Source: Octopus vulgaris
Lineage: Eukaryota
Length of the DNA: 64,000 bases
Reading direction: 5' to 3'
Assembly (NCBI GenBank): GCA_951406725.2
Contig: OX597820.1
Location: forward strand, 70,370,001-70,434,000
Shown here piece by piece: positions 4,148 through 62,637 of this stretch. Numbering within the stretch: position 1 is the first letter of the stretch; the number at the start of each line of letters is the position of its first letter. A program made the translations under genes and the position numbers. The notes under the pieces are model-generated. The model ran no database searches. It was not told where the DNA came from and was given only the letters and a program-made list of their open reading frames with translations.

Positions 4148-42354
<38,207 letters not shown>

Positions 42355-43093
42355 CTGTAAATGAAGTTAGGATCAATTAGCAAAACATACAACTGCGTTG
42401 AATATGCAAATGAAAATTTAAAAGAAAATTTCATTTAAAACTAGTCGGAGAAAAATTGTACGAGATAATAAGGTTTCCTAGCAATCACGATAGAAAGAAA
42501 ATAGCTAAGCTTACTTTCAAAATGTATGATTCACACAAATATATATAGAAAATCTTATTCCAGCAAAATTAGCAATGCGCCAGTAAGGAATCCTCAAGGT
42601 GGTTGCTTGACCTGCTAGAAATAGTAGCGAAGTTTCCCTCAATTCACAATGTATCTTTAAAAAAGATACGTTTTGATAATGCAGTCCTAAAACTTGAAGG
42701 CCACAGATAGAATGATTTCGGTTAAATGTCTATTCAATTAGAGATTAGCTGAAGCTAGGTAACAATTGCCAATAAAATTATTAATTGCATTCTACTCAAG
42801 ATTACTTTTTCCAGTGACTTCAGAAATACTACACGTGTTTGCTGTTTTCAGCCCTTGCTATCTTGAAGTTAACCGTGATAAATCAGAATTAATGCCTTTA
42901 TGTTCCACCCTTGACTATTAGATTTTTAGGGGCTTTTTTTCTGAAATCAAGGATTGCATTATCGAATATGCTTTTAAAACGCAATGCGGGTTGAACCGGG
43001 AAGTATATTAATGTGAAACAACTTCTTACCCACCAAAACATGCCTACACTTCGATGTGGCGCACCGATTCATATACTATTACTTACTCATTCT

Positions 43094-44065
43094 AAGGCGG
43101 CGAGCTGGCTGAAACGTTAGCACGCCGGACGAAATGCATAGTCGTATTTCGTCTGCCGTTACGTTCTGAGTTCAAATTCCGCCGAGGTCGACTTTGCCTT
43201 TCATCCTTTCGGGGTCGATTAAATAAGTACTAGTTACGCACTGGGGTCGATATAATCTACTTAATCCGTTTGTCTGTCCCTGTTTGTCCCCTCTGTGTTT
43301 AGCTCCTTGTGGGTAATAAAGAAATAGGTATTTCACCTGACATTACGTTCTGAGTTCAAATTCCGCCGGGGTCGACTTTGCTTTTCATCCTTTCGGGGTC
43401 GATAAAATTAAGTAACAGTTGCGTTTGGGGTCGATGTGATTGACTGTCTCCCTCCCCATAAAATCCAGGCTTTGTGCCTATAGCAGAAGGGGTTACTTAG
43501 TCATTCTTTTAGGCGTGGGCGTAGCTACGTGGGAAGAAGTTTACTACCAAACGACATGGTTCTGGCTTCGGTCCCACTGGTTGGCAAATTGAAATAAAAG
43601 TCTTCCCTCGTCCAAAGCATTCAGTGAGGGTTTGTTGACGAAAACTAAAAGAAACCCGTCATGTATAAGTGTTTGAAAGGCGGCAAGCTGGCAGAATCGA
43701 TAACACGCCGGACAAAATGCTTGACAGCATTTCGTCCGTCCTTACGTTCTAAATTCAAATTCCGTCGAGGTCGACTTTGCCTTTCTTCCTTCCGGGATCG
43801 ATAAAATAAAACCAGTTTAGTAGAGGTGGGGGTCGATGTAATCGACTATCCCCCTCATCCAAACTTCAAGCCGTGTACTTATAGTATAAAGGATTACTCA
43901 GTCATTCTTAAGACAGTGATCTGGCAGAATCGTTAGCGCTTCACGTTCTGAGTTTAAATGCTGGGGAGGTCAACTTTACCTTTAATTCTTTCAGAGTCGA
44001 TAAAGTATCACCCGAGTACTGGGATCGATGTAAACGACCTATCCCTCCAACTCAAAAATTTCTGA
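43094..44065 (+). mobile_element. Cluster of SINE family A copies with a SINE B head
   Basis: A-heads at ~43094, ~43677 and ~43911; B-head at ~43511; TACT(T/C)A(C/G)TCATTCT recurs at ~43080, ~43495 and ~43895. Confidence 0.85.
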
Positions 44066-47146: not shown

Positions 47147-47906
47147 CATAGTTTGAATGAGATTCGACAGTTAATTCTAGCTGTACGATCCTCTAAAGGC
47201 TCTCGTCTAGGCCCATATGGGAAAATTTATAAACATATGACACACGAGATTTCCAAATTATTGATCGACTCTGAACCATCACAAGTAATCCAAAAACACT
47301 CAAAGGAAAACTGACACGCTAATTAGACAAACTTCATCGTCGAAAAAAAAAATTAATATCCGTTATTTTGATGGCTTCTACTCAAACATTTTATTCCAAC
47401 GCACACTAATTCAATACCTAGCTATTAATTTAAAACATGAAATCCTTTCTAAAAATTGTTGCATTGAATTCGAATTTTCTGTTAATTAACATTGGGAAAA
47501 TAATCGTTAAAACATGCATGTTTTCATTTATGGAGAAAACATCACACCTGTACAAAAACCTATAATTTTAAATTTAGACTTAAATAGTTATGTCAAAATC
47601 GTGCTTTAACTCACAGCGCGAATAGCGTTGTCAACGAAAGACCCTCTGCAACAACTTGGGAGTATCTATGAGCCAACAAGTTAGATTCTACCCAATCACC
47701 TGACCAGCTAGAAATAGCAACCAAATTCCTTCAAATCACATCCTATTGTGTACTCGTTGTAAATCGTAGTCCCTGATATACACACAAAAAAGACAGCGGG
47801 GTCGGGGGTCATTTTTGGAGTCACTTTGATAATATGTCTACTCAGACAGAATTTACCTGGAATTAAAACTACTAACAACTCAGTAATCAAGAACTTCACT
47901 TTAATT

Positions 47907-48047
47907 ACATTATTTAGATTATATACATTTGATGATATTTGTCCTCATCTTGTTTGTTGTTAACACAAAGTTTCGGCTGATATACCCTCCAGCGGAAATT
48001 TCGAACCTGGGTTCTCATTCCTAAGGTATTTTCCGATGTTGTTATTG

Positions 48048-48087
<40 letters not shown>

Positions 48088-48223
48088 CATTATTATTATT
48101 ATTATTATTATTATTCAGATCCCTGCCTGGAATCGAACTCGGAATCTTGAAGTTAGTAGCCCGCGCTCTTAACCAATACGGGCATACTAACCCCAAGATT
48201 CCGACTTCGATTCCAGGCAATGA

Positions 48224-48276
<53 letters not shown>

Positions 48277-48450
48277 TCGGAAAATACCTTAGGAATGAGA
48301 ACCCAGGTTCGAAATTTCCCCAAGACACCTGATGAAGGCTGGAGGGTATATCAGCCGAATTGTTGTGTTAACAACAAACAAAATGAGGACAAATATCCGT
48401 CAAATGTAAGTAATGTACATAATACCTCATCTCTTAAATATAGAGCTGTA
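47907..48450. mobile_element. Inverted dimer of a tRNA-headed, (AAT)n-containing, hammerhead-bearing retroposon
   Basis: 12-bp TSD TTCACTTTAATT (47895-47906, 48451-48462); arms are reverse complements; B-box GTTCGATTCC; hammerhead core at 48324-48369. Confidence 0.85.
48324..48369 (+). ncRNA. Minimal type-I hammerhead ribozyme motif (one core substitution)
   Basis: GACAC-CTGATGA-A-GGCTG[GAGGGTATAT]CAGCC-GAAT-TG-TT-GTGTT; sister copies keep GAAA (47960-47992 and 16142-16177, minus strand). Confidence 0.7.
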
Positions 48451-48846
48451 TTCACTTTAATTGTTTGTTTTAGGCTTCTCTGCAATTCACCAGTTTTCGA
48501 AACATATTACATTCATTCTTTACAAATTGTGTACATCGTTTTCTATAGAAGAGACTATATCTGTTTGGCTGTTTTATTTTCATGACTTATAGAAAAGAAC
48601 AGATCTTGTATGGTAGCAATTGATCGCCATCAAGACGGTTTTTAAGATTTCTGCTTCAATGAAAACATTTCCCCGATTATCTGTCGGCGATCCTACTTCA
48701 TAACTATTCCACTTCTATTTCCTTAGACATATATACACACACTTAACGTTTTCGATTAAGCATAGTGATACTAATAAATAGTTGTTATGACTCGTCATAC
48801 ATATGCTTCAGAATATAACGTTAGTTGCGTACAGAGCGTAATAGAC

Positions 48847-49415
48847 TTTTCTACTCAAAGCACAAGGCCCGAAATTTGGGGGGAGGGGGGTCAGTCAATT
48901 AGACCGACCCCAGTACGCAACTGGTACTTAATTTATCGACCCCAAAATGACGAAAGGCAAAGTCGACATCGGTGGAATGTGAACTCAGGTGAAATACCTA
49001 TTTCTTTACGACCCACAAACGGCTAAACAAAGAGGGGACAAACAAAGACAGACAAACGGATTAAGTCGATTATATCGACCCCTGTGCGTAACTGGTACTT
49101 AATCTATCGACCCCGAAATGACGAAAGGCAAAGTCAACCTCGACGGAATTTGAACTCAGAACGTAGAGACAGACGAAATACCTATTTCTTTACTACCCAC
49201 AAGGAGCTAAACACAGAGGGGACAAACAAGGACAGACAAATGGATTAATTCGATTACATCGACCCCAGTGCGTGTCTGGTACTTAATTTATCGACCCCGA
49301 AAGGATGAAAGGCAAAGTCGACCTCGGTGGAATTTGAACTCAGAACATAACGGCAGACGAAATACGGCTGCGCATTTCGCCCGGCGTGCTAACGTTTCTG
49401 CCAGCTCGCCGCCTT
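48847..49415 (-). mobile_element. SINE family A trimer
   Basis: Three cores; flanking GTACAGAGC direct repeat. Confidence 0.88.
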
Positions 49416-49638
49416 GTACAGAGCATGATATTAGTTATTGAATGAGAAGAAACAGGAATCAAGAAATGAATTTCTTTAGCTTACCGCTGTTTCAGTTATT
49501 AGAAGGAGTGGACTGCGATATGATAAGTCCTTGTAAATCATCTTATAATAGAAACAGCTGCAAGTTAATAAAGTTGAATGTTGTTCTCATTTAATAATTA
49601 TGTATGTGTGTGTTTGTGTGTGACTATGTGCGTAAAAT

Positions 49639-58686: not shown

Positions 58687-61600
58687 ATGTTCGTCCTTCG
58701 GGTTCGAAGATGACCATTGACATCATTTGGTGGAATTGCTGCTTTGAGACCGGAGGTGGCTGGTGAGGCCAATCCGGGCAAGAAAGCCCCTCCCACAGGT
58801 GGGGCAGAAGTGGGTAGGGGCTGTGCTATTGGTGCAGGTGACTCTGGCTTTCCGCATCTGGCGTTTCTGTTCTGCTGACTGAATCCGTCTCTCCTCGGCT
58901 GTCTTTGCTCCTGTGGTGATTGCGCTGCGCCAGGATGAGTGGTCGGCAGCAAGTGTCTCCTAAGTCTCTGTGCTGATGGAGAAGTCTTTGAGAGATACTT
59001 TGAGACTGTCCTTGAAGCGCTTCTTCTGCCCTCCGACTTTGCGTTTGCCCTGGCTGAGTTCACCGCAGAAGAGCTGTTTTGGGATGCGAGTGTCGGACAT
59101 GCGGGAGACGTGGCCTGCCCATCTCAGCTGGGCCTTGCGCATGATCGTGATGGTGCTAGGGAGATCTGCCTGCTTCAGAACTTCCGTGTCTGGGACTTTG
59201 TCCTGCCAGCTGATGTGAAGGAGGTTCCGAAGACACCTGAGGTGGAAGTGGTTTATCTGGCGCTCGTGCCTTCGGTAAGCAGTCCACGTTTCGCAGCCGT
59301 ATAGTAGGGTGGTAAGCACGACTGCCCGGTAGACTTTCAGCTTGGTGTTGAGGCTGATTCCTCTTCGCTCCCAACTTTCTTTCGCAGTCTCCCAAACACG
59401 CTGCTTGCCTTGGAGATTCTGTTGATGATTTCAGCATCTATGTTGGCATTGAAGGAGGGAGTGCTGCCCAGGTAGGTGAAGTTTTCCACCGCTCGTAGGA
59501 TCCGTCCGTTCACCTCTATCTGAGGCTCATGGTATTGTTTGCCGGGGGCTGGCTGAAACATCACTTCGGTTTTCTTGGCACTGATGGTGAGACCGAAGTT
59601 GTCACAGGCTGATGAGAACCTGTCCATCCCGAGCTGCATTTCCTGCTCATCGATTGCGGTAAGGGCGCAGTCGTCAGCAAAGAGAAAGTCTCTGACGACT
59701 GTCTCCCTCACCTTTGTGACGGCCTGCAATCTTCTGGATTTGAAAAATTTCCCGTCCGTCCTGTACTTGATGTTGATACCGGACTTGCAGTCCATGAAGG
59801 CGTCGGACAGCATTGCCGAGAACATGATGCTGAACAGTGTTGGGGCCAGGACACAGCCCTGCCTGACTCCGTTGGTCACCTGGAAGACTTCAGATGAGTT
59901 GCCGTCTTCAAGGACTCTGGCTGTCATTCCGTCGTGGAACTGGCGGACAATTGCAATAAATTTGCTGGCGCAACCAAATTTTCCCATGACCTTCCAGAGT
60001 CCCTCCCGACTGACTGTATCGAAAGCCCTGGTGAGGTCAACAAAGGTCATGCAGAGGTCAAGGTGCTGCTCCATGCATTTCTCCTGGAGCTGGTGGGCGG
60101 TGAATATCATGTCAGTGGTCCCTCGACCCGCGCGGAAGTCACACTGGCTCTCAGGGAGAAGGCCTTGCTCCAAGTGTTCCAGAAGGCGGTCAAGCTGGAC
60201 TCGGGCCAGGTTCTTGCCTGCTATGGACAAGAGGGAGATTCCTCGGTGGTTGTCGCAGGACTGCCGATCTCCTTTCCACTTATAAATGTGGACGATTGTT
60301 GCGCCCCGGAAATCTTGCTGGAGTTGTTCCCTGTCCCACATCGACTGGAACAGGCTAGTGAGCTGACTGATCATGGTTGGGCCGCCCGACTTGAACACCT
60401 CTGCAGAGATGGCGTCAGAGCCTGGAGCTTTGCCGGTGGACAATTTTTTGATGGCTCTGCCCACTTCCTCGACTGCAGAAGGAACAGCCAGCTCGTGGTT
60501 TGTCGGCACCTGGGGGAGTCGTGCGATGGCTTCCTCGTTGATCTGGGCTGGTCGGTTGAGCACGATGTTGAAATGCTCCGCCCATCTCTCCAGGATCAGC
60601 CTCTTGTTAGTCAGGAGTGAGGTTCCATCCGAGCTGAGCAGGGTGGTTGACCCAAAGGAGGACCGGTTCATAGACAGCTTTCAGCGCCTCGTAGAATTTC
60701 TTGGTGTCGTGTTTGTCTGCGTGTCCCTGAATCTCATCCGCCTTGGCGCTTAACCATGCGTCTTGCATGAGACGGAGTTTTGCCTGGACTGTGCTGCGAA
60801 TGCTGTTGAAAGCAGCCTTCTTTGCGTGCAGGTGGTGTCATTTTGGTGGGCCCGCAGCAGACGGCGTTTCTCTTCCAGGAGCTTTTGGATTTCCTGGTCG
60901 TTTTCGTCGAACAAGTCCTGGTGGTTCCTCGTAACTTGGCCTTGAGTTTCAAGGGCGATGGAATGAGCCGTGTCCCTGAATGATTCCCACTGCTCATCGA
61001 TGCTGGACTGGTCATTCCGAATGTCCAACAGCTTGCTGTCCATACGTGACTGGAGATCTTGTGCAGTCAGCTGGTTCTTTAATTTCGTGATGTTAAGCTT
61101 CCTCGTCACTTTTTGACCCTGTGGTCTTCTCTTAGGTTGGATGTAGAAATCCATCCTGGAGATGATGAGGCGATGGTCCGTCCAGCAATCAGCTCCACAC
61201 ATTGCTTTGACCAGTCTTCTGTCCCGCCTGTCTTTCGCCCTGATGATGACGTAATCTATCAGAGCGTGGATGCATCCATGATGTCTTGTTGTGTGTTGGC
61301 AGACGGAACAAGGTGTTGGCGATGGTAAGATCATGAGAGGCGCACGCCCGCAGGAGGAGCTGCCCGTTGTCGTTGCACTTTCCGATTCCTTGCTTTCCCA
61401 GTACGCGATGCCAGGCTTGGTGGTCAGTCCCGACACGGGCGTTAAAGTCCCCAAGGAGGATGAGCTTCTCAGGCTGGGCTGACATGATGAGGGAGTCGAG
61501 TTCCTCATAGAACCTGTCCTTAACTTCTTCAGGGTTGGTCATGGTGGGGGCGTAAGCACTGATGATGGTCGCACTAGTCTTGTTTCCAAGTGGGAGCTGC

Positions 61601-62637
61601 ATCTTCATCAGCCGATCGTTGATACCCTCGGGGGAGCTTTCCAGTTTCCGCACGTGTACTGACTTGATGGCAAAACCAACACCAGCCTCACGACGCTCTT
61701 CGCTGCTGCGGCCACTCAAAAAGAAAGTGTAGCCACCGCCTGTCTCTGTCAGCTGGCCTTTGTCCGCAAGGCGGGTCTCGCTCAGTGCTGCGATATCGAC
61801 ATTGTATCGGCTCAGTTCTCTGCCCACCAGGGCAGTTCGTCTCTCTGGTCTGTCCGCTTTGGTGTTGTCAAGCAGAGTTCCCACGTTCCAAGTTGCGAAA
61901 GTGAGCACCTTTGTTCGTTTTCTTTCTTTTTTTCGACGGCTTGGAAAGGATCCCCGCCAGCCGCGGTTTGCTGACCAGGGTGAGGTGAGGCAGGCTATGT
62001 TTAGGGCAACCTTTTCTAGCCCCGTCCTCATGCTGCGGAGGCGAGCAGAGCGATCCTGAAGAGGGCTGCTCGGTCACTCAGGAGGCTGCCGGACTCCACT
62101 GCTGCCTCAGTTCAGTGAGGGGCGACCACATGTCCTGAGCCGCCTGTGTGTGGGTTCACGACTGCAGCTCCCAGTGTATCCTCACCTGCTACTTCGCCGT
62201 TTCCCCATCGCCACAGGACTTTGTGATGTTGGTGTCATGATATCATGACGTGCGCGTGACTTGGATTATAGTGAGGGTGACTTGCGCAGGAGCAGCCTCA
62301 CTCTCTCGTCCTGGTGCGCCGGATCCAGTGGCAAGACAAAGTCAAGACGGCTGGGGGTAGAGCAGGATGCAGGAGCTGCCGGAAGGTAGCACGCATGGCG
62401 CAATCCAACCGCCTTAGGGGCTCCACTCCGGATTTATGTAGGTTTTTGGATGGCCATTGACTCATGAGAGAGTTCCTCTGCCCTTTGACAGGTTTTGTTT
62501 TTAGTCCTGCTGGGTGTCCAAATCACCCTCCTCACCAAGAAATCTTGGTGGGGTTGCCAGTTTAGTCGCCAACGACCCGACCATGTAACAGGTTGTACTG
62601 GGTTACATGTTACCAGTAGCTCCAAGCGGAGACCTGA
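58687..62637 (-). mobile_element. Near full-length RTE-clade LINE (APE + RT + C-terminal Zn-finger-like motif), inactivated by several frameshifts
   Basis: APE (TWNVGTL..AALSETR..SAYAPT..LGDFNARVG) in ORF 61189..62031; RT (GVRQGCVLAPTLF, FLFADD) in ORF 59337..60671; CPTCGRGFLARIGLTSHLR before the stop at 58723-58725; perfect 13-bp TSD CACGTGTCTGGTA at 58674-58686 and 62638-62650; 3' hairpin CTTCG-AACC-CGAAG. Confidence 0.96.
58723..62031 (-). pseudogene. Disrupted RTE ORF (endonuclease/reverse transcriptase)
   Basis: Consecutive ORF fragments in different frames: 61189..62031, 60750..61508, 60734..61015, 59337..60671, 58960..59319, 58554..59063. Confidence 0.93.

Follow-up and report, generated by a model that had tools for sequence, protein, structure and literature searches.

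An inverted tRNA-headed insert in the octopus genome is a pair of pLTR copies of an autonomous Penelope element, probably templated by RNA begun at the head

Introduction

Among the closest described systems is PAc (Poseidon of Anolis carolinensis), a Penelope-like element (PLE) with one ORF that encodes a reverse transcriptase (RT) and, at its C-terminus, a GIY-YIG domain, a hammerhead ribozyme that lies over the ORF start and requires protein for its cleavage, and two internal RT start sites with a stretch between them that forms the tail, both target strands being cut and extended (PMC11167929). More widely, EN+ PLEs (Penelope/Poseidon, Neptune, Naiad) show 5' truncation, partial-tandem pLTRs and an inverted 5'-truncated copy with a tail of 30-40 bp at one end (PMC8557442). 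Minimal hammerheads, found in PLEs as dual motifs on opposite strands 100-700 bp apart, are marked by an extra base before stem II, a G-C first pair, a palindromic CG and a short stem I (PMC4209133). The promoter of D. virilis Penelope is TATA-less and LINE-like with a DPE, and, together with the RNA start, is placed within the pLTR and upstream of the ORF (PMC2377424). Outside the PLEs, tRNA-derived SINEs are short, high-copy inserts that have a head with A and B boxes and are flanked by target-site duplications (TSDs) (PMC5786205), and non-LTR retrozymes are short non-coding copies with a type-I hammerhead, kin to PLE pLTRs and arranged as tandem ribozyme-bounded monomers (PMC7761336; bioRxiv 10.64898/2026.07.22.740005).

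The octopus insert analysed here, and the family to which it belongs, resemble each of these systems in part. With PAc they share the ORF layout, the placement of the hammerhead, two putative start sites that define a tail and the apparent cutting and extension of both target strands; unlike PAc, for which the accessible part of the report describes no such feature, they have a tRNA-derived head, and the rule of one tail per dimer is counted here in genomic copies (52/59) (PMC11167929). Truncation, partial-tandem pLTRs and inverted copies with a one-ended tail are as in other EN+ PLEs, whereas the accessible text on those elements has no counterpart to the way in which 5' ends accumulate strongly at a tRNA-derived head within the pLTR (PMC8557442). 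The putative hammerhead has the features of the minimal PLE type, for which the accessible text gives no link to tRNA (PMC4209133). The inferred RNA start sits in the pLTR upstream of the ORF as in D. virilis, with tRNA A and B boxes at the position that the LINE-like promoter holds there (PMC2377424). Head, boxes, copy number and TSDs are those of tRNA-derived SINEs, unlike which the head lies inside the autonomous partner and copies have their 3' end at an internal priming site instead of a LINE tail (PMC5786205). From retrozymes, with which the family has the hammerhead, the kinship to pLTRs and the short non-coding copies in common, it differs in that the tandem ribozyme-bounded arrangement is theirs.

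Among the features described here, the inversion of the arms, the tail on one side and the minimal hammerhead are already published hallmarks of PLEs, and arms ending at the first bases of a tRNA head inside a pLTR are what we did not find in print. SINE heads are thought to have been added onto non-coding fragments of LINEs; a tRNA head inside an autonomous element, at the known promoter position of Penelope, contrasts with that view. The schistosome repeat SM-alpha is also said to form short, high-copy inserts with TSDs and to be headed by a tRNA-derived part that bears A and B boxes. No tRNA-headed PLE was found in the literature searched, which included papers on cephalopod repeats and on SINEs; the family may already be present in Repbase, in Dfam or in the octopus consensus library of 2026. 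The accessible text of the retrozyme preprint does not mention tRNA, Pol III or octopus (bioRxiv 10.64898/2026.07.22.740005), and the 2026 octopus repeat annotation, as far as its accessible text and supplement go, does not mention hammerheads, its supplement having no entry for pLTRs or ribozymes.

Our main reading, to which we give a probability of about 0.6, is that the insert is a pLTR pair from an autonomous Penelope with a tRNA-Arg-derived head, likely templated by a head-initiated and probably Pol III-made RNA.

Results and discussion

Anatomy of the insert

The window, by which we mean the whole 64,000-nt stretch analysed (C7:70370001-70434000 of a 2.8-Gb genome), contains a 544-bp insert that lies between 12-bp TSD copies and consists of two head-to-head arms, each ordered head, (AAT)n tract and module, all at the places given by an initial annotation of the sequence (Table 1). 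The right arm is tailed and the left arm tail-less. The shortened right-arm head fits both a start at +29 and a start at +1 with a 27-nt internal deletion. As the annotation had also noted, the window holds no intact ribozyme core: in the right arm GAAA-CG is damaged to GAAT-TG (GAAT at 48357-48360), and the left arm and the copy near 16 kb lack CTGATGA. That last copy, which the annotation had counted as a third one, does carry a module of the same family and is merely a fragment of 90 bp with no head. The stem-II motif occurs three times in the window versus 0 in 100 shuffles.

Table 1. Features of the inverted insert and of the related fragment in the window; family positions count the first base of the tRNA-like head as +1.
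Feature	Positions	Strand	Remarks
Left target-site duplication, 12 bp	47895..47906	+	TTCACTTTAATT, exact direct repeat
Left arm, a pLTR copy without tail that covers about +11 to +244 of the family	47907..48180	-	By alignment; ends at the family's tail-less site
Left module, 5' end of Penelope ORF	47907..48036	-	By alignment; 18-nt deletion takes out the 5' strand of stem I and CTGATGA
Left-arm (AAT)n tract	48039..48115	-	
Left-arm head, tRNA-Arg-derived	48120..48180	-	Lacks the first 10 bases; A box incomplete, B box whole
Right arm	48180-48450	+	
Right-arm head, shortened	48180..48227	+	One change in B box
Right-arm (AAT)n tract	48228..48276	+	
Right-arm Penelope ORF start, ~52 codons	48295..48450	+	Candidate ATG at 48295; 835-aa frame in full-length copies
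Minimal type-I hammerhead motif, right arm	48324..48369	+	Matches features listed in the accessible part of PMC4209133
Right-arm hammerhead stem I	48324-28 / 48365-69	+	
Right-arm hammerhead CTGATGA and extra A	48329-35 (CTGATGA), 48336 (A)	+	
Right-arm hammerhead stem II	48337-41 / 48352-56	+	
Penelope 'tail', ~27 nt, right arm alone	48424..48450	+	By alignment
Right target-site duplication, 12 bp	48451..48462	+	Second copy of TTCACTTTAATT
Separate module fragment, same family, 90 bp, no head or tail	16089..16178	-	

The head derives from a tRNA

The proposed tRNA origin of the head was borne out by comparison with genomic tRNAs, among which its best match is tRNA-Arg(TCG) (44/72 identical without gaps). 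The family head is collinear and gap-free with this gene (L165; 44-45/72), which scored 30, versus a shuffle maximum of 17, and thereby ranked first among 25 distinct genomic tRNAs drawn from only 7 isotypes. In both subfamilies the head has A and B boxes that fit what we take to be their consensus, and the subfamily B head (29 exact matches) is the same head with four changes, three of which lie on degenerate box positions. The cloverleaf fold is lost (z +1.4); ARAGORN finds no tRNA in 16/16 loci, and Rfam gives no tRNA hit in the window (gathering score) or in 5 loci (E<=5), simple-repeat and hairpin noise alone being returned. Head processing of the RNase P/Z type was ruled out, the head having no cloverleaf fold. 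Most of 30 head-anchored loci run on into the module, so that the linkage of head and module is upheld across other copies, and the remainder run into unrelated sequences with no common body.

Head and module form the pLTR of an autonomous Penelope

The first link to an RT was L005, the one locus among the first 30 that is joined to an RT fragment. A genome search with this fragment yielded 9,046 candidates, and in many of the 30 loci fetched a sense-oriented head, (AAT)n tract and module stood ~480-500 nt downstream of the RT match. When loci were chosen by their ORF end, the head followed the ORF stop in 28 of 30 and head remnants did so in the other 2, the head starting about 30 nt beyond the stop; among the 30 hits of a distant-protein search, which partly coincide with loci already collected, it followed the ORF in 22 of the 23 loci that reach the ORF end. 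At the other side, the tail passes directly into the ORF N-terminus in 25/30 N-terminus-anchored loci (BLAST segments), the opening ~55 codons of this Penelope ORF being what makes up the module. Because the head follows the ORF stop, the tail enters the ORF N-terminus and the layout is as in PAc, head and module together are the pLTR of an autonomous EN+ Penelope. The Penelope link suggested earlier therefore stands, and the autonomous element that was predicted to share the 3' part exists, with an RT + GIY-YIG frame of 835 aa.

The majority repeat unit measures 2,652 nt and runs from the head through (AAT)n, the ORF start with the hammerhead, the tail, the rest of the RT + GIY-YIG ORF, the stop and ~30 nt to the head again, with a frame that begins at +116 of the head and spans the ribozyme. 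The frame is open through module and N-terminus in a natural copy (L282) and continuous over 569 aa in another (L182), and in P0003, which is 57% identical, the reading frame of the module is kept, including the residues encoded across the ribozyme. Partial tandems that form pLTRs were seen at L263, L277, L279, L282 and L369. Pfam reports RVT_1 on the element frame with E 2.7e-6 but below the cut-off (27.7 vs 29.6 bits) and gives no GIY-YIG hit on it; homologues of the protein carry PF00078, PF28514, PF26215 and, in some cases, PF01541, and we take the endonuclease to be GIY-YIG from its motif. Domain order and likeness to the PAc layout would place the element in the Penelope/Poseidon clade.

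The 30 loci fetched with the distant protein all belonged to the tRNA-headed Penelope family, no head-less sister family being found among them. A second and older PLE family (L320-L349), presumably Neptune-like, carries a linker rich in Cys ahead of the endonuclease and, in its 3' region, a unit of ~170 bp that is repeated, and the tRNA head has no match in these loci.

Short copies share the sequence of ORF-linked copies

The exact 36-nt core of the hammerhead has 1,427 genomic matches and a control 0, and the core that had been combined from the three damaged copies of the window is the family majority; core and stem II are whole in 28/69 arms that were not chosen by ribozyme. A single module turned up in 187 kb of DNA not picked for this family, from which we roughly estimate a family of the order of ten thousand copies. 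Arms are ~4-5% diverged from the family majority, and short copies are far commoner than long ones, 13 of 149 arms extending past -16 into the UTR or ORF.

This excess of short copies over ORF-linked ones is what a separate tRNA-headed SINE lineage, arising from short masters and borrowing Penelope enzymes, would produce, and such a lineage was part of the 'SINE-retrozyme' proposed at first. The tRNA head, A and B boxes and TSDs of the short copies are consistent with it, as is the existence of deleted forms that might serve as short masters. The head is, however, fixed in the autonomous element, and at each of 249 positions the majority base of 72 short segments is also that of 100 ORF-linked ones, so that no separate SINE lineage is visible. 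Subfamily B likewise comprises short copies and ORF-linked copies of its own (L305, L315, L316, L318) that carry the same variants, and the short copies lack the downstream ORF sequence that PAc needs (PMC11167929). We therefore regard a distinct SINE lineage as quite improbable; the full element probably yields the short copies as by-products, and annotators are likely to file them as SINEs.

The deleted forms, seen in ~10 of the 30 loci L261-L290 (e.g., L264, L269, L272, L280, L289), consist of the pLTR and 160-260 nt of ORF followed by a return into the pLTR, the place of this return being biased by query length, and could have acted as short masters. The (AAT)n tract often contains other repeat insertions (L091, L108/L181, L141, L203, L220) and appears to be an insertion target itself.

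The 5' ends of copies pile up at the head

We mapped arm ends in 90 loci picked by intact core (the first 30 listed and 60 of the next 70, all on contig C1), in which arms, two per locus, are not independent counts. The 5' ends are spread evenly through module and head at ~0.4% per nt, and of the 56 arms that extend as far as the head, 43 terminate at -16..+8, versus ~10% expected from the background rate; a few arm ends are mis-chained by the automatic calls, and mirror junctions blur the end position. At 30 head-anchored loci the sequence continued into the UTR in 6, met a mirror junction at a small palindrome in 8 and joined other sequence in 16, and because of these 16 the palindrome at the head start does not account for most ends. 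In one copy (L270) the sequence begins at -2 and extends into the ORF. The pile-up is most simply read as an RNA 5' end at about -2, which would make the head the likely RNA start of the element.

Some of the arms that begin at the head start (L047, L082, L122 and others) are joined head-to-head to far-truncated partners, a number of them deep in the ORF. Four of 30 N-terminus-anchored copies (L264, L272, L283, L287) begin at +181..+187, beside the predicted ribozyme cut, where about 1 would be expected, a weak hint that cleaved RNA may occasionally be copied.

Which polymerase makes the template

The intact boxes of the head, the place where copies start and the lack of T runs make its use by Pol III probable. 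Transcription would start ~2 nt upstream of the head via the A and B boxes, and read-through of the unit would be possible because the sense strand has no run of four T. Such T>=4 runs are wholly absent from the 2,652-nt majority sense strand, with an expectation of 4.4 under a base shuffle (P(0) = 0.007), 3.0 under a synonymous shuffle (P(0) = 0.028), 2.5 under a dinucleotide model and 1.6 under a Phe-codon null (P(0) = 0.09), the test being one of a single unit. The observed/expected ratio of T runs is 0.17 in family copies, which as copies of one master are not independent, versus 1.21 in the second PLE family, a control from another clade with a noisier majority, and about 1.0 in a LINE of the window. 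Runs of G>=4 are likewise absent from the majority unit. A Pol III terminator right after the tail (T5 in L197) was rejected as a candidate; it is private to a few copies, and the majority has T3.

In its fullest form, which we offer tentatively, a captured tRNA gene would have replaced the Pol II promoter, Pol III terminators would have been purged from the 2.65-kb sense strand, and the full-length RNA and the template of the ~ten thousand SINE-like short copies would both be products of Pol III, the uncapped RNA being translated, perhaps after processing by the ribozyme. The last step argues against Pol III, since an uncapped RNA must take an unusual route to the translation of an 835-aa ORF, as does the LINE-like promoter of D. 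virilis Penelope (PMC2377424), and on present sequence evidence we consider Pol III transcription of the whole coding unit doubtful. If the element is Pol III-driven, it would be an unusual protein-coding retrotransposon under that polymerase, and SINE-like copies could arise from it directly, with no separate SINE gene involved.

The same ends might arise if the tRNA-derived head was inserted into the pLTR long ago and is a passenger there, with a Pol II promoter at or upstream of it; the 5' pile-up would then mark where Pol II starts, where the RT stops or where the palindrome snaps back. The long ORF needs a translatable mRNA, the absence of T runs is of moderate significance only, mirror junctions at the palindrome account for 8/30 head-anchored loci, and the pLTR of D. 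virilis Penelope has an internal LINE-like promoter (PMC2377424), all of which agree with a passenger. A passenger head does not readily explain why 16/30 loci begin there with no mirror junction, why the boxes are retained in both subfamilies despite loss of the cloverleaf, and why T-run depletion is limited to the tRNA-headed Penelope family. Copies of tRNA-type SINEs, moreover, normally begin at such a head-start position, and we judge the passenger explanation unlikely beside our main reading.

Expression data were compared in two organisms, A and B. Three RNA-seq runs of organism B, made from standard libraries and uninformative on the promoter, show equal depth on both strands and no pile-up of molecule starts or ends; equal strand depth without shared ends is expected from passive read-through of embedded copies. 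In RNA-seq runs and contig sets (of unrecorded kind for organism A, and guessed to be RNA for organism B), the genomic end clusters recur as loose ends, and depth falls several hundred-fold past the tail.

How the inverted dimer forms

A head-to-head partner is present in 59/90 loci, and exactly one arm is tailed in 52 of these 59 dimers (p about 7e-10, automatic calls). Exact TSDs of 8-15 bp flank 18/37 parsable dimers versus 0/111 mismatched controls. Across 51 dimers, 27 non-CpG variants are common to both arms, 3.5x the permuted rate (0/2000 permutations), a sharing that gene conversion between arms could also produce. In 28 dimers it is the tail-less arm that extends further 5', and in 19 it is the tailed one. 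A simple fold-back of the first cDNA was rejected, as it fails in 28/47 informative dimers because a folded cDNA cannot gain a tail that it never held.

Two-site priming on one RNA would fit the tail count, the shared variants and the 5' reach, and would agree with the extension of both target strands by PAc as a predicted dimer. By analogy with PAc biochemistry, an RT-endonuclease dimer would nick both target strands ~8-15 bp apart and use one RNA for priming at two internal positions, near +244 and near +270. If the first pLTR is primed, cDNAs of ~250 nt would result that halt early or run off where the RNA begins; if the following pLTR is primed, the copies would contain the ORF. Two cDNAs joined at their growing ends would give mirror-image tailed and tail-less arms, with insert ends that would not be set by the ribozyme. 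Most short copies would be dead ends, because they lack the ORF stretch that PAc requires downstream of the priming site. A tailed and a tail-less arm from a single template are what would be expected of a dimeric RT that primes at PAc's two sites, and the family is a large natural record of the poorly understood integration of Penelope.

The ribozyme and the retrozyme reading

The initial annotation recognised a minimal type-I hammerhead; the family consensus of it is intact, with features that fit the published minimal PLE type. It further took the element to end at the ribozyme and did not hold there, as arms end about 60 or 85 nt beyond the predicted cut. Rfam hammerhead models, which it had recommended as a check, gave no hit in the window (gathering score) or in 5 loci (E<=5). 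The motif lies in coding sequence, and no compensatory stem change distinguishes subfamilies A and B in 10 aligned copies, so that conservation of the ribozyme is not independent evidence. Standard RNA-seq of organism B shows no ends at the predicted cut, such data being unreliable for these ends.

An intact minimal hammerhead in the family, the relation of vertebrate retrozymes to pLTRs (PMC7761336; bioRxiv 10.64898/2026.07.22.740005) and the few tandem or short module repeats that exist (L073, L289) invite the reading that cleavage frees monomers, which are then circularised and reverse-transcribed. Copies are nevertheless single or head-to-head and not ribozyme-bounded tandems, their 3' ends miss the cut by the distances given above, the subfamily A monomer folds no better than shuffles (z -0.8), the stems lack compensatory changes, and the ribozyme is unneeded for PAc insertion (PMC11167929). 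We regard a retrozyme cycle as very improbable. The hammerhead part of the first interpretation is thus retained and the retrozyme part is not: the family has neither a SINE lineage of its own nor ribozyme-bounded tandem monomers, the two features by which a 'SINE-retrozyme' would be known.

Other features of the window

A frame resembling an exon (15223-15603, minus strand) matches the end of the C2 domain of Piccolo/RIM (PDB 1rh8, 1v27; E about 1e-6) with no Pfam hit, and the 16-kb module fragment, just upstream of it, probably lies in an intron of that gene. The LINE used as T-run control is decayed, with endonuclease and RT frames (58960-62073, minus strand; Pfam Exo_endo_phos, RVT_1). The frame at 25759-26139 (plus strand) has no Pfam hit, and we take it from its motifs to resemble the C-terminus of a Tc1/mariner transposase. 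A 480-bp self-complementary element, about 80% palindromic, occupies 1648-2130. A further abundant family of short repeats, in many cases nested or in tandem, occurs at 34-703, 8268-8768, 11949-12557, 16833-17905, 43093-44060 and 48840-49436, one of its clusters beginning about 380 bp to the right of the insert.
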